Below, piece by piece: positions 2,197 through 18,602 of a stretch of DNA of 64,000 nt. Position 1 is the stretch's first letter. Every line of letters starts with the position of its first letter. The notes under the pieces are model-generated. The model was not told the origin of the DNA and did no database searches. It was given only the letters and a program-made list of their open reading frames with translations. The DNA comes from Thermoanaerobaculia bacterium (GTDB taxonomy: Bacteria; Acidobacteriota; Thermoanaerobaculia; Multivoradales; UBA5704): NCBI GenBank assembly GCA_035544895.1, contig DASZZM010000009.1:3797-67796 (forward strand), given 5' to 3'. The position numbers and the translations under genes are program-made.

Positions 2197-3049
2197 GGAT
2201 CCTGGTCGTCGTCCAGGCGCGGATGGGATCGACCCGGCTGCCCGGCAAGATCCTCCTGCCGCTCGCCGGGGCGCCGATGCTGAGCCGGCAGATTGAGCGC
2301 ATGCGCGCCGCCGCGACGCCGTTCGAGCTGGTGGTGGCGACGACCCACGATCCTGCCGACGACGCGGTCCACGACCTGTGCCGCCGGCTCGGCGTGCGAT
2401 CGACCAGCGGCCACCCCACCGACCTCCTCGACCGCCACTACCAGGCGGCGCGGCAGGCCGGGGCCGAGGTGGTGGTCAAGATCCCCTCCGACTGTCCGCT
2501 GATCGACCCTGACGCGATCGATCGCGTGCTCGGTTACTACCTGCGCCAGGCCGGAAGCTACGACTTCGTGAGCAACCTGCACCCGGCGAGCTGGCCCGAC
2601 GGCAACGACGTCGAGGTCCTGCCGTTCGCCATCCTGGAGACCGCCTGGAAGGAGGCCGCCCGGCCGCTCGAGCGCGAGCACACCACCCCGTTCGTCTGGG
2701 ACCAGCCGGAGCGCTTCCGTGCCGGCAACGTCCTCTGGGAGACCGGCGAGGACTTCTCGATGAGCCACCGCTTCACCGTCGACTATCCTGAAGACCATGC
2801 CTTCGCGGCGGCGGTCTTCGACGCCTTGTGGACGCCCGCCCGCCCGGTCTTTCCCCTGGCCGAGATCCTCGCGCTGCTCGACGCCCGGCCCGAAATCCTG
2901 GCCGTAAACCAGCGCTACGCCGGAGTCAACTGGTACCGCCACCACCTGGGAGAGCTCGCCACCGTCGCTCCCTCCCAGACCCGCTCGCCCGCGCCGGCGG
3001 CGGCGGGCCAGGGAAGCCCGCGCGATCGCCGAGAGGCGGAGGCGGGCCG

Positions 3050-3053
<4 letters not shown>
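2193..3053 (+). CDS. Acylneuraminate/sugar cytidylyltransferase family protein (SpsF/NeuA/PseF-like)
   Basis: N-terminus MRILVVVQARMGSTRLPGKILLPLAGAPML is the hallmark of this family. It has a TTG start overlapping the upstream stop, and its own stop overlaps the next GTG (GTGA). Confidence 0.75.
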
Positions 3054-4135
<1,082 letters not shown>

Positions 4136-4177
4136 GTGAGGTAGTGGATAAGACGAAACTGCGTGCGCCTAGGCCGA

Positions 4178-4305
4178 ATGTGCGCGCGTCAGGGGAGGGG
4201 GCGTCCCCTTCCCCCCCGGAGGGGTGGGAAGGGGATCGAGGGGTTGCGGGGGGAGATCCAATAGATGCTTTGAGTAGTTCACGACCGCCGCATCGCAGCG
4301 CCGAG
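4178..4305. repeat. Third copy of the G-rich structured intergenic repeat (full-length form with the gctttgagtagt...tcgcag tail)
   Basis: Near-identical over about 110 nt to copy 2 at 852-962. It lies between the transketolase N and C subunit genes. Confidence 0.7.
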
Positions 4306-4328
4306 AATCGGCATGGCCGGTGGCAACC

Positions 4329-5282
<954 letters not shown>

Positions 5283-5323
5283 GGCTCTTGCCGAGCCAGA
5301 TCAATCAATCGAGGTTCATCGCG

Positions 5324-6670
<1,347 letters not shown>

Positions 6671-6747
6671 CGAGGGGAGCCCGGTTGGCGTTCGAGCCGC
6701 ACCCGCCCGCAATGCCGCCAACACCGCGCGAGGAGAGCCCGCGCGGG

Positions 6748-7566
6748 ATGCGGGCCGATTTCTCGCTGGCTGACCGCGCCGCGGTGGTGACCGGGGCGGT
6801 CGGGCTGCTCGGCCGCCGCCATTGCCACGCGCTGGCCGCCGCCGGCGCCAACGTGGCGGTCGTCGATCTGGCGGCCACGGCGTGCGACGAGCTGGCGGCC
6901 GAGCTGCGCGAGGCGCACGGCCGCGACGCCTTCGGCTGCGCGGCCGACATCACCCGGCCCGCGGCGGTCGAGGCCTTGCGCGGCGCGGTGCTGGCGCGCT
7001 GGGGCCGCCTCGACGTCCTGGTCAACAACGCCGCGGTCAACGAGAAGGTGGAGAGCCCGCTCGCCGCCGGCGAGGTGCTGCGTTTCGAGAACTTCCCGCT
7101 CGAGCTGTGGGAAGAGTCGTTCCGGGTCAACGTCACCGGCACCTTCCTGTGCTGCCAGCGGCTGGGCGGCGAGATGGCGCGGCGGCGGGCCGGCAGCATC
7201 ATCAACATCGCTTCCACCTACGCCATGGTCGCGCCCGATCAGTCGCTCTACCGCCAGGCCGACGGCAGCCAGACCTTCTTCAAGTCGGCGGCCTACCCGA
7301 GCACCAAGGGGGCCATCCTCGCTCTGACCCGCTTTCTCGGCGCCTACTGGGGCCGCAGCGGCGTGCGCGTCAACGCGCTGTCGCCGGGGGGCGTCGAAAA
7401 TGGCCAGGACGCGGCCTTCGTGGCCCGCTATGCCGAGCGCACGCCGCTCGGGCGCATGGCCGAGCCAACGGACTACGCCGGCGCGCTGGTCTTCCTGGCG
7501 AGCGACGCCTCGAGCTATATGACCGGCGCCAACCTGGTCGTCGACGGCGGATGGACCGCATGGTGA
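6748..7566 (+). CDS. Short-chain dehydrogenase/reductase (SDR) family oxidoreductase
   Basis: Rossmann motif VVTGAVGLLG, the SDR motif NNAA, and catalytic YPSTK (YxxxK). AGGAGAG RBS 10 nt upstream of ATG 6748. Confidence 0.8.
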   Translation: MRADFSLADRAAVVTGAVGLLGRRHCHALAAAGANVAVVDLAATACDELAAELREAHGRDAFGCAADITRPAAVEALRGAVLARWGRLDVLVNNAAVNEKVESPLAAGEVLRFENFPLELWEESFRVNVTGTFLCCQRLGGEMARRRAGSIINIASTYAMVAPDQSLYRQADGSQTFFKSAAYPSTKGAILALTRFLGAYWGRSGVRVNALSPGGVENGQDAAFVARYAERTPLGRMAEPTDYAGALVFLASDASSYMTGANLVVDGGWTAW

Positions 7567-7576
7567 GCCGGCTCAA

Positions 7577-8278
7577 ATGCCGCCGCGGGACGATCGGGAG
7601 CGCCTGCCCGGGCCGCCGAGGAGAGAAGGCCGCGTGGTGAGCGCCGAGCTGGCCCGCCAGCGGGGATCCGCCGGGCCCGCGCCGGCGCTTCCGGATGCCG
7701 CCGAGCTCGCCGCCCGCGCCCGCCGTCTGGGCCTGGTGCTCACCGACAGCGACGGCGTCCTGACCGACGGCGGCGTGTACTACTCGGAGAGCGGCGAAGC
7801 GCTGCGCCGCTTCTCGGTGCGCGACGGTATGGGGATCGAGCGCCTGCGCGCGAGCGGCATCGCCACCGCCATCATCACGCGCGAGCAGTCGCAGCACGTC
7901 GCCCGGCGGGCCGAGAAGCTGCGCCTGCCCTACGTCTTCCTCGGCGTCCACGACAAGGCGGCCTACCTCCCGGCGGTGCTCCACGCCACCGGCCTGCCGC
8001 TCGAGTCGCTGGCCTTCATCGGCGACGACGTCAACGACCTCGGCCTGCTCGCCGCCATCGGCGAGCGCGGCCTGACCGCGGCGCCCGCCGACGCCATGCC
8101 GGAGGTCGCCGCCGCGTGCCACTACCGGTGCGCGGCACGCGGCGGCTTCGGCGCCTTCCGCGACTTTGCCGAGTGGATCCTGGAGTTGCGCCGCACCGCG
8201 CCGCCGGCCGGCGCGGCGTCCGGGCTCACGCCACCGAGCCCGGCGGCCGACCAGCCCGACCAGAAGGAGGAGCTATGA
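7577..8278 (+). CDS. KdsC-family HAD phosphatase (3-deoxy-ulosonate-phosphate / NulO-9-phosphate phosphatase-like)
   Basis: LVLTDSDGVLTDGGVYY ... FIGDDVNDLGLL are KdsC-family HAD motifs. GTG 7634 (preceded by GAGGAGAGAAGG) is an alternative start. The stop overlaps the next ATG (ATGA). Confidence 0.75.
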   Translation: MPPRDDRERLPGPPRREGRVVSAELARQRGSAGPAPALPDAAELAARARRLGLVLTDSDGVLTDGGVYYSESGEALRRFSVRDGMGIERLRASGIATAIITREQSQHVARRAEKLRLPYVFLGVHDKAAYLPAVLHATGLPLESLAFIGDDVNDLGLLAAIGERGLTAAPADAMPEVAAACHYRCAARGGFGAFRDFAEWILELRRTAPPAGAASGLTPPSPAADQPDQKEEL

Positions 8279-9177
8279 CGGGACCGAGCGTGCAGATCGG
8301 AGATCGCCGGGTCGGAGCGGGAGAGCCGGTCTACGTCATCGCCGAAATCGGCATCAACCACAACGGCTCTCTCGAGCTGGCCAAGAAGCTCATCGACGGC
8401 GCCTACCTCGCCGGCGCCGATGCGGTCAAGTTCCAGAAGCGGAGCCCGGAGCGCTGCGTGCCCAAGGAGCAGTGGCAGCTCGAGCGCGACACGCCCTGGG
8501 GGCGCATGAGCTACATCGACTACCGCCGGCGCATGGAGTTCGGCGAGGCGGAGTTCGCGGCCATCGACCGGCACTGCAGCGAGCGCGGCATCCGCTGGTT
8601 CGCTTCTTGCTGGGACGAGGAGTCGGTGGAGTTCGTCGAGCGTTTCGCGCCCCCCTGTCACAAGATCGCCTCGGCGTGCTTGACCGACGAGGGCCTGCTG
8701 CGCACAATGAGGGCGACTGGCCGTCCCCTGATCCTGTCGACCGGCATGTCGACCGGCGAGGAGATCGAGGAGGCCGTGGCGGTGCTGGGCCGCGACCAGC
8801 TGTTGCTGGCGCATTCGACGTCGACCTATCCCTGCCCGCCGAGCGACCTGAACCTGCGCATGGTCGAGACCTTGATCCGCATGTTCCCGGAGTGCCCGGT
8901 CGGCTACTCGGGCCACGAGACCGGCCTGGCGCCGACCTGGGCGGCGGTGGCGCTGGGCGCCACGTTCGTCGAGCGCCACATCACGCTGGACCGCGCGCTG
9001 TGGGGGAGCGACCAGGCGGCCTCGGTCGAAATCGGCGGCTTCATGCGCCTGGTCGGGAACATCCGCGACATCGAGAAGGCGCTCGGCGACGGGGTCAAGC
9101 GGGTCTATCCCGGCGAGCAGTCGCAGATCGAGAAGCTGCGCCGGGTCAAGGGGCGCGGGAGGGTGACGGCATCATGA
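8275..9177 (+). CDS. NeuB-family nonulosonic/ulosonic acid synthase (sialic-acid-synthase-like, SpsE-like)
   Basis: MTGPSVQIGDRRVGAGEPVYVIAEIGINHNGSLELAKKLIDGAYLAGADAVKFQKR is the NeuB/PseI/LegI N-terminal TIM-barrel signature. GAAGGAGG RBS. ATGA overlaps at both ends. Confidence 0.8.
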   Translation: MTGPSVQIGDRRVGAGEPVYVIAEIGINHNGSLELAKKLIDGAYLAGADAVKFQKRSPERCVPKEQWQLERDTPWGRMSYIDYRRRMEFGEAEFAAIDRHCSERGIRWFASCWDEESVEFVERFAPPCHKIASACLTDEGLLRTMRATGRPLILSTGMSTGEEIEEAVAVLGRDQLLLAHSTSTYPCPPSDLNLRMVETLIRMFPECPVGYSGHETGLAPTWAAVALGATFVERHITLDRALWGSDQAASVEIGGFMRLVGNIRDIEKALGDGVKRVYPGEQSQIEKLRRVKGRGRVTAS

Positions 9178-9989
9178 ACTGGTTGATCGTCTCGCCGGTG
9201 GTGATCGTGGCCGCGGGGATCACGCTGGTCCTGCTCGAGCGGCGCTTTCCGTACGACCGCGGGCAGCGTTTCTTGCGCGAGGGGTTCTTCACCGACCTGG
9301 TGTTCTACACGATCATCCAGAACTACGTGCTGGCGGTGGTGATCTCGGCGGTGATCCTCCGCATCGACGCCGGCACCGGGATGTCGCGGCTGCACCTGGT
9401 GTCGGGCTGGCCGATCGCGGTGCAGGTGATCTTCTTCGTGGTGACGCACGACCTTTATATCTACTGGTTCCACCGCTGGCAGCACAACAATACATTCTTG
9501 TGGCGGCTGCACGAGGCGCATCACTCGACCAAGCAGGTGGACTGGCTGGCCGGAGCGCGCTCGCACTGTTTCGAGATCCTGATCAATCAGACGGTCGAGT
9601 TCGCGCCGATGGTCTTCCTCGGCGCTCCGGCCGAGGTGCCGCTGATCAAGGGGATGGTCAGCGCGGTCTGGGGCATGTATATCCACTCGAACATCGACGT
9701 GCACACCGGCCGCCTGCAATGGGTGATCAACGGCCCCGAGGCCCACCGCTGGCACCACGCCACGGACCTCGAGCCGCCCGGGATGAATTTCAGCACCAAG
9801 ATCGCGCTCTGGGACTTCCTGTTCGGGACGGCGTACCTGCCGCGCGACGAGAGGAAGCCCACGCGCTACGGCCTGACGTACGTGGAGTTCCCGAGGGGAT
9901 ATCTGCGGCAGAACTTGTTCGCGTTCCGCCCCTTGAAGCCGGATATTCCGCCGCCGGTCGAGGATGGCGGGGGGGCGGCGGCGGGGTAG
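9174..9989 (+). CDS. Fatty-acid hydroxylase / sterol-desaturase superfamily integral membrane protein
   Basis: Histidine boxes HDLYIYWFHRWQH, HEAHH and HRWHH together with hydrophobic transmembrane segments. It is the last gene of the coupled operon. Confidence 0.75.
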   Translation: MNWLIVSPVVIVAAGITLVLLERRFPYDRGQRFLREGFFTDLVFYTIIQNYVLAVVISAVILRIDAGTGMSRLHLVSGWPIAVQVIFFVVTHDLYIYWFHRWQHNNTFLWRLHEAHHSTKQVDWLAGARSHCFEILINQTVEFAPMVFLGAPAEVPLIKGMVSAVWGMYIHSNIDVHTGRLQWVINGPEAHRWHHATDLEPPGMNFSTKIALWDFLFGTAYLPRDERKPTRYGLTYVEFPRGYLRQNLFAFRPLKPDIPPPVEDGGGAAAG

Positions 9990-10016: not shown

Positions 10017-11686
10017 TGCGCCAGCGGATTCTGCCGGTGCTGCAAGCTGCGGTGCTTGCCGTGGTTCTGGCCCCACCGCAGCCTGTCGCCTGCGCGGCAT
10101 CGCTCCCGCACACCGTGGCGTTTCCGCCGCGCCTTCTCCAACGCGACGCGCGGCCACAGCAGGTCGTCGCCGGGGTGGCGCCGGCCGCGGCCTCGCCGCC
10201 CAGGTTCGTCGTGACCAATGTCGAAGTTGGCCGACTGCCCATCGCTGCCGTGATCTCGCCGGACGAGCGCTGGGCCTACGTGCTCAGCGCGGCATCCGGC
10301 GAGATCGACGTGCTCGACCTGACGACCTCTACGCTGGCCCATCGCGTGCGGCTGCCCTACTTCATGGACGCCATCGGCATCTCGCCGTCTGGCGACGAGC
10401 TCTACGTCGCGGCTGCCGCGCCGCCCTTGACGGGTTACCCGACCGACGGCTCGTGCCCGTTTGTCACGCTCGCACCCACCTCGAGCGCCGTGCTGTTCAT
10501 CGACACCGCCTCGCTGACGATCACCAATCGCGTCTCGGCGCCCACCCTGATCATCGACCTGGTGCTCAGCCCCGATGGCAACACGCTGGTGGCGAGCACC
10601 GCGTCGGGCCTCGTCTTGATCGACCTGCGGACCCGCACCTCCACCGAGATTGCCACCGTCGGCAGGAGCGATCAGGAGGCGGCAGTCTTCGCGGCGAACG
10701 CCACCAAGGTCTTTGCCGTCCACAGCACCGACACGCTCACCATCTTCGACCTGGCGGGCCGCTCCGCCAGCAACGCCGTGACACCGCCTGGCTATATCTA
10801 CTTCGGCAACAACGTCAGCGCCACTCCCGGCGGCGACAGGGTCTTCGTCGACGCCTGCAATCCGAACTGCGACATGGCGGTGCTCGACGCCGCCAGCGGG
10901 GCCGTGGTCAAGGTAGTGCCCAACACCAGTCAAGGTTCGGGACTGTTGGTGACGCGCGACGGACGGCGTGCCTTCCTTCCCGATGGCGCCACGCTTCTCG
11001 ACTTGAGCACTCTGGAAGTCGTGGCAAACGGGGTGCTCCCCGGGTTTGGCGGGGTGGCGGGAGCGCTGTCGCCTGACGAATCCGTGCTCTTTGTCCGTCC
11101 CAGCGGCGGCCTCGACTTCAGCCTCGTCCTCTACGGCGGTCCGGTGAGCTACGACCTGGCCGCGATCGATACGGCGTCGCTGCAGACCTTGACCTACACG
11201 GTTCTCGACCAGCGCCAGGTGCGCTGCAGCTGGGCGTCGCCGCTCAGAATGTCGCGGAGCGGCCAGGTTCTGGTGGCTCCCAACCCAACCTTGAACACGG
11301 TCAGCCTGATCAGGGTCCAGAACGCGTCGCCCCCGGTGTGCGTGCCGGGCACCTTCAGCCTATGCTTGGGCGGTGGGCGCTTCGAGGTCACCGCCAGGTA
11401 CCTGACCGGGGCTGGGGAGTCGGGCGCGGCCCACGCGGCGCCGCTTACCTCGGACACCGGCGCTTTCTGGTTCTTCTCCGCCGCGAACTTGGAGGTGGTG
11501 GTGAAGGTCCTGAATGGATGCGCTGTGAACGGCAGCTACTGGGTCTTCGCCGCCGGCTTGACCGACGTCAACGTGGTGCTCACCGTCACCGACTCCCGGA
11601 CCGGCCTCGCGAAGACCTACATGAACCCGCAAGCCACCGCTTTCCGTCCGATCCAAGATACAGACTCCCTGGCCGTCTGCCCCTGA
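10017..11686 (+). CDS. Secreted beta-propeller repeat protein (YVTN/lactonase-like repeats)
   Basis: Signal peptide MRQRILPVLQAAVLAVVLAPPQPVACAAS. Repeated SPDG.../..D..T..L segments. GGAGGAGGGCGGAGAAGG RBS. The ORF-track start at 9500 is rejected. Confidence 0.65.
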
Positions 11687-11793
11687 CGGCGGTTAGCGGG
11701 CTAGCGTGCGGCGGGAAGGACCTGACTCTACAGCGACCGTCTGCGCAGGCTACGCTATCATGCAAGAACGCGCCCCGTGCGGAGGTCAGGACG

Positions 11794-12510
11794 ATGAGAG
11801 AGTACGAGGAAGAGGGCTGGCATGTGTTCGAGGAGAAGACGACGAAGTCCTTCGCCGTCTTCAAGGTGGACGCGTCACATGGACTCGATCGCCGCCTGTC
11901 CGGTCTCGTCACCCGCTACGAGTGGGAGGGCGCGAGCTGCCACATTCTCGCTCCCGGCTCGGAAGGGTGGTTGACCTTCGAAGGAGGGGTGGTGAAATGC
12001 AAGATACGGGTTGCCTGGTATTTTGCATGGGCCAAGAGCACGATCCTCTCGCAGATCAGGACCACCACGCTCGACGTATGCGGTACCCTGGCTCTCACGG
12101 GGAAGACGGTTTTTATCGTCCATGGCCACAATATCGCCAAGAGGGACGAGCTTCAGGCCCTCCTTGGCGGGCTGGGGCTGCAGACGATCGTGCTCGATGC
12201 GGAGGACAGCATGGGCATGACGATCATCGAGAAGCTGGAGTTTTACGCTCAGACGTGCGCCTTCGCCATCGTGCTGATGACTCCCGATGACCTGGCAGGA
12301 GCCAACGTGCGCGCCCGGCAGAACGTGGTGCTGGAGCTGGGCTGGTTCATGGCCAAGCTGGGTCGCCAGCGTGTGCTGCTCCTTTATACCGGAGACGTCG
12401 AGATTCCTTCGGATATCATGGGGATCGTTTACTTGCACTTCAAGGACAGCATCCGGGAAATCGAGGGTAGGATTCAGCAGCGGCTGCGCGGCTGCGGGAT
12501 GATTGCCTGA
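11794..12510 (+). CDS. TIR-like domain protein (PF10137/COG4271-type predicted nucleotide-binding TIR-like domain) with an uncharacterised approximately 100-aa N-terminal domain
   Basis: C-terminal half TVFIVHGHNIAKRDELQALLGGLGLQTIVLDAEDSMGMTIIEKLEFYAQTCAFAIVLMTPDD...RARQNVVLELGWFMAKLGRQRVLLLYTGDVEIPSDIMGIVYL matches the PF10137 pattern (rArQNVifElGyFlGkLGr.rV ... PSD..G). GGAGG RBS. The local GC content is visibly lower than the flanks. Confidence 0.7.
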   Translation: MREYEEEGWHVFEEKTTKSFAVFKVDASHGLDRRLSGLVTRYEWEGASCHILAPGSEGWLTFEGGVVKCKIRVAWYFAWAKSTILSQIRTTTLDVCGTLALTGKTVFIVHGHNIAKRDELQALLGGLGLQTIVLDAEDSMGMTIIEKLEFYAQTCAFAIVLMTPDDLAGANVRARQNVVLELGWFMAKLGRQRVLLLYTGDVEIPSDIMGIVYLHFKDSIREIEGRIQQRLRGCGMIA

Positions 12511-12613
12511 TCCTTCCTGCCGCCATTCGCGCCCTTTTCTAGCGGAATGGGTTCACGACTCTCGTCGATCTCTGCCGCTGAAGGTCGAGCGGCGTGGCCC
12601 TGCCACCCTAGGC

Positions 12614-13035
12614 TCAGGGCGCGAGGATGGTGCAATCGAGGGAAGGTATGCGCCCGAAGTCGCCGTCGAAAGTCAGAAGGTGTCCGCCGCAATCGAGGGC
12701 GGTTGCGGCTATCCAGATGTCATTGATCGGGATTGGCGTACCGGCTCGGCGCAGGTCGGCGAAGAGCCGGCCGTAGCGGCGGGCTACCGCGGGTGTCACC
12801 GGCAGGATCGAGACGAAGCTCTCCGCGAGGAACTCGCCGAGGACCGAGCGGTTTTCCCTTTCGCGCCGCCCCAGGCTGAAGGCAGCCTCCAACTCACCCA
12901 AGACAATGGTCGGGAGATAGATGATCTCGCAAGCGGCGATGATCTCGAGGACGCGCTCGTCTCCGGCCCTGAAACGAGAGTAGGCGGATGTATCGAGGAC
13001 CAGTCGACCGACGCCTTCAGCGCCAGAGAGGATCA
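12614..13035 (-). CDS. vapC: PIN-domain toxin (VapC family)
   Basis: MILSGAEGVGRLVLDTSAYSRF...IVLGELE...DIWIAATAL carries the PIN acidic residues. Its start overlaps the end of the upstream antitoxin gene. Confidence 0.75.
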
Positions 13036-13259
13036 TCGGTTGACCGTTGGGCCGCCAGCGCCTGGTTGAACTCCGCGAGGTCGTCCGGGTTCCAGGTCGC
13101 GTAGCGACCCAGCGTGCGCCGTCTCTCGTCCATCCCGACCGCGGCCGCGAGGATTTCGAGCACCGTCGCATTGACGCTCTGGCCCTTCGCCCGGCTGACG
13201 CTTTCCAGCCTGCGCCCGACCTCCTCCGAGACTCCGCGAATCGTCAGTTGCTTGCCCAT
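13017..13259 (-). CDS. vapB: VapB-type antitoxin
   Basis: MGKQLTIRGVSEEVGRRLESVSRAKGQSVNATVLEILAAA... is a small DNA-binding antitoxin overlapping the vapC start by about 19 nt. Confidence 0.6.
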   Translation of the reverse strand: MGKQLTIRGVSEEVGRRLESVSRAKGQSVNATVLEILAAAVGMDERRRTLGRYATWNPDDLAEFNQALAAQRSTDDPLWR

Positions 13260-13346
13260 GACAGCATGATAGCACAAATGTGCAGGCATGCCTCGCTCAG
13301 GGCATCTCATGCGGCCCCCTAGGTCGCCTCGCGCGAAGGATCTTGT

Positions 13347-13760
13347 TTAGCGGAATGGGTTTACGATCTCGAGCCCGTCGATCCGCCGCCCATGCTGGAG
13401 GTCCTCGGAGTAGAGGACCGAGCAGCTCGATCGCAGTGCCGCGCGCACGACAAGCGCATCCCATAGGGAGTAGCCATGGAGGCGATGGAGATCGATGGCG
13501 CCGAGGATGTCTTCGAGGCCGATGAGGAACAGATCGAAGCGCGCAAAGAGCTCCACTTTCCGGCGGGCAATCTCGGGCGGGACTCCCAGCTTCCGAGTGG
13601 CAGTCACGAAGTACTCCTGCAGGACCTGGCTCGAGACCACGCCGCTCGACCTTCGGCGGCAGAGGTCGACGAGAGCTAGCGCAGCCTCCTGCTTGTCGGG
13701 AGCGCCCTGATCGTCGGTGTAGACCAGGACGTTGCTGTCCAGAAAGCTACGGCCGGGCAT
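13347..13760 (-). CDS. vapC: PIN-domain toxin (VapC family), second copy
   Basis: MPGRSFLDSNVLVYTDDQGAPDKQEAALALV...GYSLWDALVVRAAL is a PIN domain. It overlaps the upstream antitoxin gene. Confidence 0.75.
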   Translation of the reverse strand: MPGRSFLDSNVLVYTDDQGAPDKQEAALALVDLCRRRSSGVVSSQVLQEYFVTATRKLGVPPEIARRKVELFARFDLFLIGLEDILGAIDLHRLHGYSLWDALVVRAALRSSCSVLYSEDLQHGRRIDGLEIVNPFR

Positions 13761-13974
13761 GGATCTCGTCGCGGTCGAACTTCCAGCCGCGCGAATTCCC
13801 TCGGCTTTCCCGCGAAAGCCGACCGAGCTCGGCAAGGTCTTCTTCGACAGTCGTTTTCGAGGTGATCTGTTCGAGATAGTCGCGCACCAGCTGGTTGACG
13901 CTCTTGCCCATGGCGGCGGCGACCTTCCGCGCCTCCTCGACCAGGCGCTCATCCACGGAGAGAGTAAGGTTCAT
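13747..13974 (-). CDS. vapB: Antitoxin (ribbon-helix-helix / VapB-like)
   Basis: MNLTLSVDERLVEEARKVAAAMGKSVNQLVRDYLEQI... GAGGAGG RBS. It overlaps the vapC start. Confidence 0.6.
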   Translation of the reverse strand: MNLTLSVDERLVEEARKVAAAMGKSVNQLVRDYLEQITSKTTVEEDLAELGRLSRESRGNSRGWKFDRDEIHARP

Positions 13975-14039
13975 GGAAGACCTCCTCGCACATAATACGT
14001 GAGCACGGAATGTGTGTCCAATAGTGCCTTCCCGGCCAT

Positions 14040-14106
14040 CCCGCAGGTCTCATGCTATAATGCCATAGCCTGCACGTCAGGGATCCGCGGGCCGGAGGGT
14101 CTCGCC
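14040..14106 (+). promoter_or_regulatory. Putative promoter/operator: TATAAT -10 hexamer embedded in a GCTAT-AATGCC-ATAGC palindrome, 45 nt upstream of the BNR gene start
   Basis: The segment catgctataatgccatagcctgcacgtcagg is duplicated with the gene at 16265-16330. TATAAT lies at 14056-14061. Confidence 0.35.
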
Positions 14107-16179
14107 ATGAATCGAGTCGAAACGCGGCGCGATGGGGTTGCCGCCGTTGCCCTGCTGCTCCTGGCCTTGCTCTCGTTGCCGGCCGCGGCGGCGGCAGGCC
14201 CGGGGGGCGAGGGGCTGGCTGCGGGTGGTTCCGATCTCGCCGCGGCCGCCGGAATCAGCGCGGGGAGGAGGAGCGGCTGGAGATCGATCGCGCCGGGAGC
14301 GGGGTTCGTCAGCGCCCTGGTAGTTACCCCGGGGCCGGATGGCCGGGTCTATGCCGCCACCGGCGACGCCGGTGTCTTTCGCAGCGACGACCATGGCGCC
14401 ACCTGGGTGCGCTCGAGCAGCGGCATCGCCGAGCCGAACGTTTTCGAGCTGCGTGCGGACCCGGCCGACCCGTTGACCCTCTACGCGGCCACCGCGGCCA
14501 GCCTCTACAAGACGACGGATGGCGGCATCTCCTGGCGGCCGATCTTTGCCGGGGAGTTCAAGGAAGGCCCCAACGGAGTCGCGGTCTCCGCGTCCGCGCC
14601 GCAAGTCCTCTACGCGACCACCCGCTTCGGCTTTTACGGCAGCACGGACGGTGGCGCCACCTGGGACTTCCACGGCCGTAAGCCGGCAGATGGGGAACCG
14701 CTCGGCTTCGAAGTCGATCCTCAGCGCCCGTCGATCGTTTACCTGCTCATGGGCAACGGGGTCTTCACCACATCGTCGGCGGGCCGAAGCTGGTCGAAGA
14801 TCCTGGATGTCGTTTCCGCCACCGACGCGGTGACGGCGCTCGCCATCGACCCCGCGCATCCCGACACCCTCCTTGCCGGCTCGACCCAGGTGCAGAAGAG
14901 CGTCGACGCGGGCGCGACCTGGTCTCCCTCCTTCTCGGGCATCCAGAAACGGTTTGCCGAGGTGACGAGCCTGGCCTTTCAGCCCGGGAACTCGGCGATC
15001 GTCTATGCGGGGACCGGCTGGGGCCCCGTCTACTACCCTCAGCCCGGCGTCGGCCAGATCTACAAGAGCACGGACGCGGGGACGACCTGGAGCCCGATGG
15101 TCGACGGACTCGGCACGGTCAACCGGCTCGTGGCCGATCCCTCCGATCCGCGGCGCGTTTTCGCGGCGATCGATCGCGGTGTGCTGCGCAGCGAGGACGC
15201 GGGGCTCACCTGGGAAGACTCCAACCGGGGCCTGACGGCCAGCCAGGTCGAGGCCATCACTCCCGATCCATCGGCCAGGGGAACTCTGTATGCTTCGCTG
15301 CAGGCCAATGACGAGTTCCTCGGCGTCTGGAAGAGCACCGATGCCGGCGCCACCTGGACGTCACGGGTCAAGGGGCTCGACACGGCCGGGCTTCCGACTC
15401 CCTATAATCCGCCCGGCCGCGTGATCGCGGTGCCCGGCGCCCCGCTATACGCGGCGGGATCCGGACGTCTCGACCGCAGCCGCGACGGCGGCGCCACCTG
15501 GCAGCGGCTCGACACCGGCAACAACAGCGTGATCGACGCCGCGGTCGATCCGGCCGCGACCAGCACTGTCTACGCGGTGGGCGAATACCGCACCGTCTGC
15601 CAGACGTTCTACTGCCCGCCCGTCGGCCTGGTGAGCGTCAGCAGGGACGGCGGCAACACCTTCGCCGACATCACCCGGCTGGTCAATCCGGCCGAGGAGA
15701 CGGGCGTGCTCGACTCCGTGGCGATCGCCCCGGGGACCGGGACCGTCTTGCTCTCCGGCGACCTCACCTTCAAGAGCACGGATCACGGAAGCAGCTGGAC
15801 GCGGCTCTCTCTCGGGCCGGACATCCGCAACCTTGTGCTCGATCCGGGGGCGCCCTCGACCCTCTATGCCATCAACGCGGCGATGGTCTGGCGGAGCACC
15901 GACGGCGGGGCGACCTGGACCTCCCCCAACGTGGGACTTCCCAAGGGCGGCGGTTGCGAGCTGCGCCGTGTCGCCGTCGATCCGAGCGGCTCGGGCCTCG
16001 TGGTCCTGGCCACCAGCCAGGGCGTCTTCTCGTCCTCCGACGGCGCGGCGACCTGGAGCCGGGTTTTCGGGCTCGAGCAGTTCTCCGTCCTGTCCGTGGC
16101 GGTCGATCCCTTCGATCCCAGGACGATCTACGCGGGGACTGCCGGCGGCGGCGGCCTGTTCGTCCAGACCAGGCGCTGA
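14107..16179 (+). CDS. Secreted BNR/Asp-box repeat beta-propeller protein (Ycf48/sortilin/glycoside-hydrolase-like propeller)
   Basis: Signal peptide MNRVETRRDGVAAVALLLLALLSLPAAAAA. At least 10 Asp-box motifs (SDDHGATW, TDGGISW, TDGGATW, VDAGATWS, TDAGTTWS, EDAGLTWE, RDGGATWQ, TDHGSSWT, TDGGATWT, SDGAATWS). The start is defined by the paralog and by GGAGGG upstream. The ORF-track start at 13999 is rejected. Confidence 0.8.
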   Translation: MNRVETRRDGVAAVALLLLALLSLPAAAAAGPGGEGLAAGGSDLAAAAGISAGRRSGWRSIAPGAGFVSALVVTPGPDGRVYAATGDAGVFRSDDHGATWVRSSSGIAEPNVFELRADPADPLTLYAATAASLYKTTDGGISWRPIFAGEFKEGPNGVAVSASAPQVLYATTRFGFYGSTDGGATWDFHGRKPADGEPLGFEVDPQRPSIVYLLMGNGVFTTSSAGRSWSKILDVVSATDAVTALAIDPAHPDTLLAGSTQVQKSVDAGATWSPSFSGIQKRFAEVTSLAFQPGNSAIVYAGTGWGPVYYPQPGVGQIYKSTDAGTTWSPMVDGLGTVNRLVADPSDPRRVFAAIDRGVLRSEDAGLTWEDSNRGLTASQVEAITPDPSARGTLYASLQANDEFLGVWKSTDAGATWTSRVKGLDTAGLPTPYNPPGRVIAVPGAPLYAAGSGRLDRSRDGGATWQRLDTGNNSVIDAAVDPAATSTVYAVGEYRTVCQTFYCPPVGLVSVSRDGGNTFADITRLVNPAEETGVLDSVAIAPGTGTVLLSGDLTFKSTDHGSSWTRLSLGPDIRNLVLDPGAPSTLYAINAAMVWRSTDGGATWTSPNVGLPKGGGCELRRVAVDPSGSGLVVLATSQGVFSSSDGAATWSRVFGLEQFSVLSVAVDPFDPRTIYAGTAGGGGLFVQTRR

Positions 16180-16264
16180 GCCGGGGTCCCTGCCACCCCG
16201 GGCTCAGGGCGCCTGGAGGCTCGCGATGGCGGGCCGCACCCCTGCCGCTCGTGCGCCCGGCCAC

Positions 16265-16330
16265 CCCGCAGGCGTCATGCTATAATGCCATAGCCCGCAC
16301 GTCAGGATCCGCGGGCGGGAGGGTTTCGCC
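16265..16330 (+). promoter_or_regulatory. Duplicate of the TATAAT/palindrome promoter-operator upstream of the second BNR paralog
   Basis: gtcatgctataatgccatagcccgcacgtcagg with TATAAT at 16281-16286, again 45 nt upstream of the ATG. Confidence 0.35.
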
Positions 16331-18397
16331 ATGAATCGAGTCGAAGCGCAGCGCGATGGGGTCGTCGCCACTGGCCTGCTGCTCCTGGGCTTGCTCTCCT
16401 TTCCGGCCGCCGCGGCGGCGGAGCCGGCGGGCGAGGGCCTTGCCGCGCGTGGCTCCGAAGTCGCGGTGGCCGGCGGCATCAGCGCGGGGAGGCGGAGCGG
16501 CTGGAGATCGATCGCGCCGGAAGCGGGGTTCGTCAGTGCCGTGGCGGTCGCGGCGGGGCCGGATGGCCGGGTCTTTGCCGCGACGAGCGAAGCCGGCGTG
16601 TTTCGCAGCGACGATCATGGCGCCACCTGGTTGCGCTCGAGCAGCGGCATCGCGGAGCCGAACGTTATCGAGCTGCGTGCCGACCCGGTCGACCCGTTGA
16701 CCCTCTACGCCGTCACCTCGTCCTGGCTCTACAAGACGACCGATGGGGGTGTCACCTGGCGGCCGATCTTCGCCGGGTATTTCAAGGAGGGCCTTAGCGG
16801 CTTGGCGATCTCGGCCTCGACGCCCAGCATTCTCTATGCGTCGACGCGCTTCGGTATCGATGGCAGCGCCGACGGCGGCGCCACCTGGGACGTCATCGGA
16901 CCGCACCCGCACTCATTCGGGCCGCTCGGCTTCGAAGTCGATCCCCAGCGCCCAGCGGTCGCTTACCTGCTCATGGGCTTCTCTGTCTTCGCTACCACGA
17001 CCGCCTGTCAAAGCTGGTCGAAGATCCTGAATAAAAATGGCGGCAGCGAAGCGGTGACGGCGCTCGCGATCGACCCGGCGCATCCCGACACCCTCCTTGC
17101 CGGCTCCACTCTGGTGGAAAAGAGCGTGGACGCGGGTGCGACCTGGTCTCCTTCCTCCTCGGGCATGGAGAAACGGTTTGTAGAGGTGACGAGCCTGGCC
17201 TTCCAGCCCGGGAGCTCGACGATCGTCTATGCAGGGACCGGCTGGGGCCCCCTCTTGTTCCCGCAGCCCGGCGCCGGCCAGATCTACAAGAGCACGGACG
17301 CGGGTGCGACCTGGACCTCCGTGGACGACGGCCTCGGCGTGGTCAACCGGCTGGTGGTCGATCCCTCCGACCCGCGGCGCGTTTTCGCGGCGATCGATCG
17401 CGGTGTGCTGCGCAGCGAGGACGCGGGATTGACCTGGGAAGACTCCAACCGGGGCCTGGCGGCGAGCCAGGTCGTGGCCGTCACTCCCGACCCGGCGGTC
17501 AGGGGGACGCTGTTCGCTTCGCTGCAGGCCAATGACGAGTTTCTCGGGGTCTGGAAGACCTCCGATGCCGGCGCCAGCTGGACGCCACGGGTCAAGGGGC
17601 TCGACACGGCCGGGCTTCCGACCCCCTATAACCCGCCCGGCCGCGTGATCGCGGTGCCGGGCGCCCCGCTCTACGCGGCGGGATCCGGACGTCTCGAGCG
17701 CAGCCTCGACGGCGGTGCAAGCTGGCAGCGGCTCGACACCGGCAGCGTGATCGACGCCGCCGTCGATCCGGGCGCGACCGGCACCGTGTACTCGGTGGGC
17801 GAATACCGAGACGTCTGCCAGGCGTTCCACTGCCCAACCCGCGGCATGGCAGCCGTCAGCAGGGACGGCGGCAACACCTTCACCGACATCACCCGGCTGG
17901 TCAATCCGGCCGATGCGCCGGGTGTGCTCGACTCCGTGGCGATCGCCCCGGGAACCGGGACCGTCTTCATCTCCGGCGACCTCACCTTCAAGAGCACGGA
18001 TCACGGAAGCAGCTGGACGCGGCTCTCTCTCGGGCCGGGAATCCGCAACCTCGTGCTCGATCCGGGGGCGCCGTTTACCCTCTACGCGGTCGACGCGGCG
18101 ACCGTCTGGCGGAGCACCGACGGCGGGGCGACCTGGAGCTCCCGCAACACGGGACTTCCCAAGGGCGGCGGTTTCGAGCTGCGCGGCGTCGCCGTCGACC
18201 CGAGCCGCTCGGGCCTCGCGGTCCTGGCCACCAGCCAGGGCGTCTTCACGTCCTCCGACGGCGCGGCGACCTGGACGCCGCTGCCGGGACTCGAGAAGCT
18301 CTCCGTCCTGTCCGCGGCGGTCGATCCCTTCGATCCCAAGACGATCTACGCGGGGACTGCCGGCGGCGGCGGGCTGTTCGTCCACACGCGGCGTTGA
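16331..18397 (+). CDS. Secreted BNR/Asp-box repeat beta-propeller protein, tandem paralog of 14107-16179
   Basis: About 85% identical at the protein level to the upstream gene over its full length, with the same Asp-box series and signal peptide. Confidence 0.8.
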   Translation: MNRVEAQRDGVVATGLLLLGLLSFPAAAAAEPAGEGLAARGSEVAVAGGISAGRRSGWRSIAPEAGFVSAVAVAAGPDGRVFAATSEAGVFRSDDHGATWLRSSSGIAEPNVIELRADPVDPLTLYAVTSSWLYKTTDGGVTWRPIFAGYFKEGLSGLAISASTPSILYASTRFGIDGSADGGATWDVIGPHPHSFGPLGFEVDPQRPAVAYLLMGFSVFATTTACQSWSKILNKNGGSEAVTALAIDPAHPDTLLAGSTLVEKSVDAGATWSPSSSGMEKRFVEVTSLAFQPGSSTIVYAGTGWGPLLFPQPGAGQIYKSTDAGATWTSVDDGLGVVNRLVVDPSDPRRVFAAIDRGVLRSEDAGLTWEDSNRGLAASQVVAVTPDPAVRGTLFASLQANDEFLGVWKTSDAGASWTPRVKGLDTAGLPTPYNPPGRVIAVPGAPLYAAGSGRLERSLDGGASWQRLDTGSVIDAAVDPGATGTVYSVGEYRDVCQAFHCPTRGMAAVSRDGGNTFTDITRLVNPADAPGVLDSVAIAPGTGTVFISGDLTFKSTDHGSSWTRLSLGPGIRNLVLDPGAPFTLYAVDAATVWRSTDGGATWSSRNTGLPKGGGFELRGVAVDPSRSGLAVLATSQGVFTSSDGAATWTPLPGLEKLSVLSAAVDPFDPKTIYAGTAGGGGLFVHTRR

Positions 18398-18602
18398 GCC
18401 CGGGGGGAAGGGCTGCGGCGCCGGCCGCCGCTCCCGCCATTGGCGGCACTCCCCGCAGGTCGGAAATGAGCCTGTCTCCTGCGTTGCGCTCGGTCGGACG
18501 CCCTCGACGTACTTCGACTACGCCTCGGTCGTCCGACCTTCGCGCGCCTTGGATCCAGGCACATTTGCGACGCCTCGCGGCGAGGACCGGTGAGAATGCG
18601 GG

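Follow-up and report, generated by a model that had tools for sequence, protein, structure and literature searches.

The means by which single-protein TIR NADases recognize infection are known for very few cases, the clearest being SpbK, whose trigger is a phage portal protein. SpbK, encoded on ICEBs1 of Bacillus subtilis, has a 94-amino-acid N-terminal domain that a linker connects to its TIR domain, and its single gene is sufficient for defense. At rest the protein is a dimer without activity, whose NADase turns on once the N-terminal domains cluster on the dodecameric portal protein; clustering leads to a head-to-tail assembly of TIR domains like that of TIR-STING, and SpbK makes N1-cyclic ADP-ribose (N1-cADPR). 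Here we describe a gene of comparable layout from a Thermoanaerobaculia bacterium, found in a 64,000-nucleotide stretch of contig DASZZM010000009.1 (assembly GCA_035544895.1) that is referred to throughout as the window. The gene lies at window positions 11794-12510 on the plus strand and joins a well-understood killer domain, a C-terminal TIR domain, to a small conserved N-terminal domain that is structurally predictable and also occurs on another killer module. We put at about even the chances that it encodes a self-contained, SpbK-like sensor-TIR NADase, in effect an abortive-infection defense switch in one gene. The defense role of this candidate is plausible from homology, and the gene offers a testable handle on a new type of sensor, on the true role of the PF09650 family, to which the N-terminal domain is distantly related, and on immunity or stress-induced suicide in the Acidobacteriota, which dominate in soil but have been little studied.

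The gene is real and intact, and encodes a two-domain protein of 238 amino acids; the coordinates include the stop codon at 12508-12510, and the translation of the open reading frame (ORF) is exactly the sequence quoted in the original prediction. An in-frame extension reaches back to 11338, which would overlap the preceding gene, whose end lies at 11686. Since all homologs begin at a methionine equivalent to that of 11794, and a Shine-Dalgarno-like GGAGG (11781-11785, plus strand) lies 8 nucleotides upstream of this ATG, the start at 11794 is correct. An identical protein, P0001, occurs in a metagenome-assembled genome (MAG) from the Thermoanaerobaculia, where its database name is only "nucleotide-binding protein". 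No regulatory RNA was found at the gene by Rfam and no intrinsic terminator-like site was detected there; shuffled sequences fold as well as the 5' leader does (z = +1.1).

The TIR domain spans amino acids 103-235 (12100-12498, plus strand), as judged by Pfam, PADLOC, Foldseek and a profile search of PDB sequences, and is of the Cap12/PycTIR type. The assignment of the C-terminal 130 or so residues to PF10137, made in the original prediction, was confirmed by a Pfam search that scored far above its cutoff: the PF10137 (CAP12-PCTIR_TIR) match to amino acids 106-217 reaches 116.4 bits (cutoff 24.7; E=9.6e-34) and takes in positions 2-118 of the 119 in the profile. The profile search of all PDB sequences returned only Cap12 and PycTIR. 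The best Foldseek matches in the PDB to an AlphaFold2 model of the protein (pLDDT 77, pTM 0.52) were TIR domains from TIR-STING (9lmq and 7un8).

In the profile alignment, R175-Q-N177-V-V-L-E181 of the window protein (RARQNVxLE in the family) corresponds to R78-D-N80-V-V-F-E84 in SfSTING and D207 to D110. The published SfSTING structure shows E84 as the catalytic residue, with substrate bound by R78 and N80 and with D110 coming from the partner TIR domain; the codon of the predicted catalytic glutamate, E181, lies at 12334-12336 on the plus strand. R175, N177, E181 and D207 are invariant in 32 family members, as are F107 and the VHGH strand. All of the NADase active-site residues known from TIR-STING (F107, R175, N177, E181, D207) are thus conserved in sequence. 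The machinery for oligomerization-dependent cleavage of NAD+ is therefore intact, and we infer that the window protein is a NADase.

These features suggest how the protein might work. The N-terminal domain, about 98 residues of alpha+beta structure, would serve as a trigger-sensing or assembly-control module, and the resting protein would be inactive, either as a monomer or as a dimer. Binding of a trigger to the N-terminal domain would cause the protein to cluster, and the TIR domains would then stack head-to-tail, with each active site completed by E181 together with D207 of the neighboring subunit. The assembled TIR domains would hydrolyze NAD+, leading to arrest or death of the cell, that is, abortive infection. 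The most likely trigger would be a multimeric phage protein, and a small hydrophobic, lipid or phospho-ligand is the alternative.

The resemblance to SpbK is one of layout. [quoted passage not shown] However, SpbK's N-terminal domain is a four-helix bundle, whereas that of the window protein is predicted to be alpha+beta and shares no homology with it. No SpbK chain was found among the sequence or fold matches of the window protein, and so the two proteins have TIR domains of different subfamilies. In addition, an integrative and conjugative element carries SpbK, whereas the window gene is chromosomal in an acidobacterium.

The TIR domain itself is closest to those of Cap12 (TIR-STING and TIR-SAVED) and PycTIR, with the best sequence and structure matches to 9lmq, 7un8 and 8jsj. 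The window protein shares with them the subfamily and the catalytic set, R-x-N-x-x-x-E plus an aspartate supplied in trans, and activity dependent on oligomerization is expected for it as well. It differs from Cap12 in lacking a STING or SAVED sensor domain by Pfam, NCBIfam and PADLOC, and in having its TIR domain C-terminal to an unrelated domain of about 100 amino acids; the NCBIfam Cap12 equivalog models gave 34 bits against a cutoff of 450. It differs from PycTIR in that the PycTIR model aligns over the TIR part only (E=1.2e-13, amino acids 120-221), and in having no domain that binds cyclic nucleoside monophosphates (cNMP) and no cyclase nearby. From Thoeris ThsB it differs by the absence of a ThsA-type effector neighbor (SIR2/SLOG, Macro, transmembrane and similar types) at the window gene. 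Since the sensor domains and partner genes that define these systems were looked for and found absent, the gene does not encode a Cap12, PycTIR or ThsB component.

The genomic surroundings agree with this. No gene for a cGAS/DncV-like nucleotidyltransferase (CD-NTase), cyclase, ThsA-type effector or other defense system lies within about 10 kb of the gene in the window, no CD-NTase gene lies beside the TIR gene in nine homolog contexts, and no partner gene is conserved across these nine neighborhoods. Two candidate partners were considered and rejected as not conserved across the nine contexts: DinB_2, upstream only in the lineage of L004 and L088, and Amidohydro_3, found only in L001 and L086. 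The gene is therefore stand-alone, as the original prediction had it for the PF10137-type gene at this position: CD-NTase, cyclase, STING, SAVED and cNMP-binding domains are all missing, the flanking genes are of housekeeping type and no partner emerged from the neighborhoods.

These comparisons bear on two other explanations. The protein might be an orphan effector whose N-terminal domain binds a nucleotide-derived messenger that a cyclase, CD-NTase or TIR protein would supply in trans, as in Cap12 of cyclic oligonucleotide-based antiphage signaling systems (CBASS), in PycTIR and in Thoeris. The nearest solved TIR domains do come from the ligand-activated TIR-STING and PycTIR proteins, the N-terminal domain also occurs on two-transmembrane (2-TM) effectors (see below), an architecture typical of CBASS and Pycsar, and its invariant threonine, lysine and tryptophan could form a site for a phospho-ligand. 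However, no signal-generating enzyme is found beside the gene in the window or in the nine other contexts, and no similarity between the N-terminal domain and STING, SAVED, cNMP-binding or SLOG/Macro sensors could be detected; we regard this explanation as quite unlikely. A second explanation, which we find highly improbable, is that the TIR domain does not deplete bulk NAD+, and instead produces a signal in the manner of ThsB or acts on another nucleotide or nucleoside, like the TIR-fold enzymes MilB and NDT. TIR domains can make cADPR isomers, N1-cADPR of SpbK among them, and one phage match to this TIR domain is annotated as a CMP/hydroxymethyl-CMP hydrolase. Against this, no adjacent effector gene was found, and the one TIR phylogeny consulted places PF10137 TIR domains in clade 6, apart from the ThsB-type TIR domains (PF08937) of clades 5 and 7. 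Moreover, TIR proteins in CBASS and Pycsar contexts are regarded as NAD+-depleting effectors rather than signal producers, and the NAD-binding residues of SfSTING are conserved in the window protein.

A further relative was found among the PADLOC models. PDC-S35 models matched amino acids 102-235 of the window protein with E values of up to 3.2e-47 (159 bits; profile positions 117-254 of 264), whereas reference PDC-S35 proteins match the models end to end with 245-360 bits. PDC-S35 is a single-gene candidate proposed by guilt-by-embedding, from genes located inside BREX, DISARM or type I restriction-modification systems. Its TIR half is homologous to that of the window protein, and both combine an N-terminal region of about 70-140 amino acids with the same TIR subtype in a protein of about 220-300 residues. 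The N-terminal domain of the window protein is, however, of a different type that is not modeled in the PDC-S35 HMMs. The association with phage defense put forward earlier for the gene is one by homology, and the PADLOC match to this candidate system covers the TIR half alone.

The TIR subtype is recognized by the motifs VF(I/V)VHGH, IIEK(F/L)E, TPDD and RARQNVxLELG, in that order, and is widely distributed. In 72 representative bacterial and archaeal genomes it is joined to at least 28 N-terminal regions that are unrelated by BLAST, and on mobile elements it was found in 1178 plasmid records, 5 phage records and 30 IMG/VR contigs. About 985 records of PDC-S35-type TIR genes are from Klebsiella and E. 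coli plasmids, where they are labeled "nucleotide-binding protein" or "TIR-like". On the K. pneumoniae virulence plasmid pCR-HvKP4-VIR (L095, 106034-106933) a TIR gene is located beside genes for a P-loop NTPase, a DUF3800 protein and VapBC, and a PDC-S35-type TIR gene is also present in Escherichia phage vB_EcoM-689R2 (L094, 3105-3866). A relative of the same subtype in a Pyrinomonadaceae MAG (L011, 7623-8435) has an N-terminal region that resembles a second TIR domain (HVYISYSRLDEE...), and is possibly a TIR-TIR protein.

The N-terminal domain (amino acids 1-98; 11794-12087, plus strand) is a putative sensor or regulatory module that distantly resembles PF09650 (PHA_gran_rgn). The original prediction described the N-terminus as resembling nothing recognizable and as a possible sensor. 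The first of these statements no longer holds, as the region is a conserved domain with more than 100 full-length homologs and is related by hhalign to the PF09650 family. The homologs form more than 100 database clusters of 240-260 amino acids with 40-78% identity, and their first 98 or so residues align throughout. Most homologs are from Acidobacteriota, the named sources being Thermoanaerobaculia, Pyrinomonadaceae and Candidatus Angelobacter, and among species-representative genomes the full arrangement of N-terminal domain and TIR domain was found only in Acidobacteriota and one unclassified MAG. Two positions of the family alignment, T16 and W44, are invariant, and four others (K18, G55, G65 and S86) are almost invariant.

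When the N-terminal domain alone was used in an exhaustive profile search, only 55 representative proteins were returned: TIR fusions, free-standing proteins of about 100 amino acids, and proteins of 278-415 amino acids with another C-terminus. A word-indexed search with a broad alignment of the domain retrieved only 7 proteins, all stand-alone members of PF09650. The domain aligned to the free-standing proteins with an hhalign value of 99.7% (E=7e-26, 90 columns), and 15 of 19 of these proteins match Pfam PF09650 (best E=7e-12). The window protein itself scored 16.6 bits against PF09650, below the cutoff of 26.6 (E=0.0099, amino acids 40-90). With a strong profile-profile match and a sub-threshold score of its own, the N-terminal domain is a distant relative of PF09650 rather than a formal member. 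The two have in common a T-x-K-x-F motif, an invariant tryptophan, a G-x-x-G motif and an (F)PAT-like motif; PF09650 proteins, however, are stand-alone and functionally uncharacterized, whereas the window domain is fused to a TIR domain. The PF09650-type relatives carry the database name "polyhydroxyalkanoic acid system family protein". The family name, "putative polyhydroxyalkanoic acid system protein", connects these uncharacterized proteins to polyhydroxyalkanoate (PHA) by annotation alone.

AlphaFold2 models the N-terminal domain with the topology beta-beta-alpha-beta-beta-beta-beta-alpha (pLDDT about 77-85), and a sequence search found no related solved structure. Foldseek gave a weak pointer to the KA1/helix-grip fold class (SRPBCC, TBP-like), and a fold of this kind is predicted for the domain. 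The matches share only 3-13% sequence identity with it and have no relationship to it at the sequence level; the likeness, drawn from a model with pLDDT about 77, is one of fold class rather than evidence of homology or of lipid binding.

A sensor role for the domain is plausible. It diverges about 1.4 times faster than the TIR domain, with a mean pairwise identity of 43% compared to 60% and a lower value in 99% of pairs, yet its sequences are not hypervariable; and it is found on another effector elsewhere. In the proteins of 278-415 amino acids the domain is followed by two hydrophobic helices, as judged by hydropathy, and 5 of 7 of these proteins weakly match PADLOC models of the CBASS "2TM effector" (E values of 2e-4 to 9e-3). 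The assignment of these proteins to the 2-TM/SLATT type is based on these weak matches and on hydropathy. A search with one of the 2-TM fusion proteins retrieved no more than 3 proteins, and none of these is annotated in Pfam.

Two killer modules thus share a sensor-like domain, and a single killer module is combined with many N-termini, a modular logic that is typical of defense effectors. The fusion of a PF09650-like domain to a Cap12-type TIR domain or to a 2-TM effector is undescribed in the searchable literature, and the combination, with its sister 2-TM fusion, is new in this sense; the TIR part is known (PF10137). A broader proposal, which we offer tentatively and consider somewhat unlikely to hold as a whole, is that the PF09650-like domain is an unrecognized sensor or regulator of conflict systems that controls interchangeable suicide effectors. 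By this proposal PF09650 would be mislabeled as a PHA granule family and the free forms of about 100 amino acids would serve as separate regulators or as decoys. In that case the window gene would be the founder of a new, largely acidobacterial, family of single-gene abortive-infection systems with a new mechanism of trigger recognition.

Two arrangements of N-domain genes were observed in addition. The metagenomic protein P0139 (415 amino acids) carries two tandem copies of the N-terminal domain followed by a hydrophobic C-terminal region, which hints that the domain may work as a dimer. A free-standing PF09650-like gene of about 100 codons, P0142, is located 44 nucleotides downstream of an unannotated 395-amino-acid ORF and upstream of a DUF433 gene in each of three contigs (L091 3770-5303, L092 and L093). 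Neither the 395-amino-acid protein nor the other unannotated neighbors of N-domain genes had a Pfam match. P0142 and the 395-amino-acid ORF may be a sensor-effector arrangement that is divided between two genes.

Several observations weigh against a defense switch of the SpbK kind. The family is absent from classical defense islands, and its contexts consist of housekeeping genes, with toxin-antitoxin genes within 3.5 kb in 4 of 9. The N-terminal domain profile had no match in any viral, phage or plasmid locus examined, and the KA1/SRPBCC fold class often has lipids or small molecules, not proteins, as its ligands. How the two domains are oriented to each other is uncertain in the AlphaFold2 model (pTM 0.52). 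As to the nearest defense candidate, the name PDC-S35 had no hit in the searchable literature and most PADLOC candidates of this class are unvalidated. Finally, on comparison of related genomes (below), a stable, syntenic gene such as this looks more like a resident of the chromosome than a defense gene with fast turnover.

The last of these points comes from two genome pairs in which homologs of the gene are located at corresponding positions. In the first pair the locus reads DinB_2, TIR gene, Na/H exchanger, and the TIR proteins are 66% identical compared to 50-64% for the products of the flanking genes. In the second, where an amidohydrolase gene lies on one side of the TIR gene and LuxC further along on the other, the corresponding values are 78% and 69-86%. 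Synteny, together with divergence similar to that of the neighbors, indicates vertical inheritance under purifying selection. In the related genomes L001 and L086, the TIR gene is found between luxE-like and luxC-like genes, beside an amidohydrolase gene, with different toxin-antitoxin modules inserted around it. This suggests a hotspot for small cassettes within an otherwise conserved locus.

Stable inheritance would also fit a physiological switch unconnected with defense, in which the N-terminal domain senses an endogenous cue, such as a membrane or storage-lipid surface or a metabolite, and the TIR domain lowers NAD+ to bring about dormancy or a stress response in soil Acidobacteriota. The syntenic loci at which the gene diverges like its neighbors speak for this explanation, as do the housekeeping contexts of 5 of the 9 neighborhoods, the fold class of the N-terminal domain with its frequent lipid or small-molecule ligands, the annotation of its relatives as the PHA-system family PF09650, and its absence from viral and plasmid loci. 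However, the PF10137-type TIR proteins of known function are defense effectors, and plasmids and phages commonly carry the TIR subtype. In its other fusions the N-terminal domain is joined to a CBASS-like 2-TM killer module, and the connection of PF09650 to PHA is an annotation of uncharacterized proteins. We consider a physiological role unlikely; if true, it would provide an example of a defense-type effector stably integrated into host regulation.

The base composition of the gene was also compared with its surroundings. Its GC content is 59.8%, compared to a window mean of 70.2%. Among 717-bp windows across the 64 kb (mean 70.2%, standard deviation 3.6%) it is the lowest stretch, with 0.03% of windows as low as the gene. 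Together with the VapBC pairs downstream, the TIR gene makes up the lowest-GC 2.3-kb stretch of the window. The sliding-window analysis thus agrees with the earlier observation that the gene is AT-richer than the DNA around it. The GC content at third codon positions, however, is 0.795 and within the normal range for genes of the window (mean 0.866, standard deviation 0.055, minimum 0.757), and that at second codon positions, 0.41, is the lowest among them. The dip thus largely reflects the composition of the protein. The idea that the gene was acquired horizontally therefore fared less well than the GC difference on which it had been built: with normal third-position GC, and with synteny and neighbor-like divergence in the two genome pairs, recent horizontal acquisition is not demonstrated and is at best weakly supported. 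The context in the window does differ from the syntenic loci of relatives, so the gene has been relocated at some point. A metagenome scan for an empty site, made with the protein encoded upstream, gave matches only to the C-terminal domain of about 115 amino acids of that protein, and found no orthologous loci and no members of the TIR family there.

Downstream of the TIR gene, on the minus strand, are two pairs of genes for PIN-domain and ribbon-helix-helix proteins (12614-13259 and 13347-13974). The first pair consists of a VapC-like PIN toxin gene (12614-13036; Pfam PIN E=3.4e-15), whose start is placed at the methionine of MILSGAEG and which is a neighbor with no functional link shown, and a gene for a VapB-like, FitA-type ribbon-helix-helix antitoxin (13017-13259; PF22513 E=2.8e-7). 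The second comprises another VapC-like PIN toxin gene (13347-13760; Pfam PIN E=1.7e-6), its start likewise inferred, and one for a ribbon-helix-helix/DUF6364 antitoxin (13747-13974), with a match to a sigma-70-like promoter at 14020-13992. Within the 103 nucleotides that separate the TIR stop codon from the first PIN gene are two pieces copied from the second PIN gene, one direct and one inverted. The direct relic (12534-12558, minus strand) is a copy of 13342-13366 and corresponds to the 3' end of the gene (VNPFR-stop). The inverted relic (12559-12597, plus strand) corresponds to an internal segment, reads LVDLCR followed by a stop that replaces an arginine codon, and matches 13637-13675 at 95%. 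The fragments are evidence of past recombination among VapC paralogs at this site.

The gene had been described as flanked by VapBC modules. This is correct for the downstream side, where the two pairs and the PIN relics directly follow. It does not hold for the upstream side, where the neighboring gene is one for a secreted repeat protein. Among the nine homolog contexts, toxin-antitoxin modules lie within 3.5 kb of the gene in 4 and are absent from the other 5, and the VapBC modules that adjoin homologs are not orthologous to one another. A functional link between the TIR gene and VapBC was rejected for this reason, and the association appears to be co-location at a hotspot at most.

The same evidence bears on the possibility that the gene is a toxin-like addiction or stability element of a small toxin-antitoxin island, with the N-terminal domain acting as an inhibitor in cis or with the VapBC genes functionally coupled to it. 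It would account for the toxin-antitoxin genes that lie near the TIR gene in 4 of 9 contexts, including those directly downstream of it in the window and in L086, for the PIN-gene relics that abut the TIR stop codon, and for the low-GC block of 2.3 kb formed by the TIR gene and the two VapBC pairs. However, neighboring VapBC modules that are not orthologous between genomes are difficult to reconcile with coupling, and the VapBC genes of the window are on the opposite strand with a promoter-like site of their own. The 5 contexts without toxin-antitoxin genes count against it as well, and genomes that lack VapBC already suggest that the TIR gene is independent of these genes. An addiction element therefore seems very unlikely to us.

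The remaining genes near the TIR gene have no apparent connection to defense. Upstream is a sugar/nonulosonic-acid cluster, followed by the gene for the secreted repeat protein, the immediate neighbor. The cluster (2828-9177) encodes a transketolase-like protein, a class-III aminotransferase, a short-chain dehydrogenase/reductase, a haloacid dehalogenase-type hydrolase and a NeuB-family synthase, and is likely a nonulosonic-acid or sugar biosynthesis operon. An ORF at about 9176-9989, after the NeuB-type cluster, has histidine-box motifs and no Pfam match. The last 115 or so amino acids of the secreted repeat protein (about 11335-11683) form a separately conserved domain for which no Pfam family was found. 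A total of 238 soil-metagenome relatives aligned to this domain alone and show the motifs DTGAFWFF and YWVFAAGLTDV. Beyond the VapBC pairs are duplicated BNR/sortilin-like genes, a muramidase gene and Mla transport genes. The BNR/sortilin-like genes, which encode secreted proteins, are a tandem duplication that includes the leader region (14031-16186 and 16256-18405), with 87% nucleotide and 80% protein identity between the copies.

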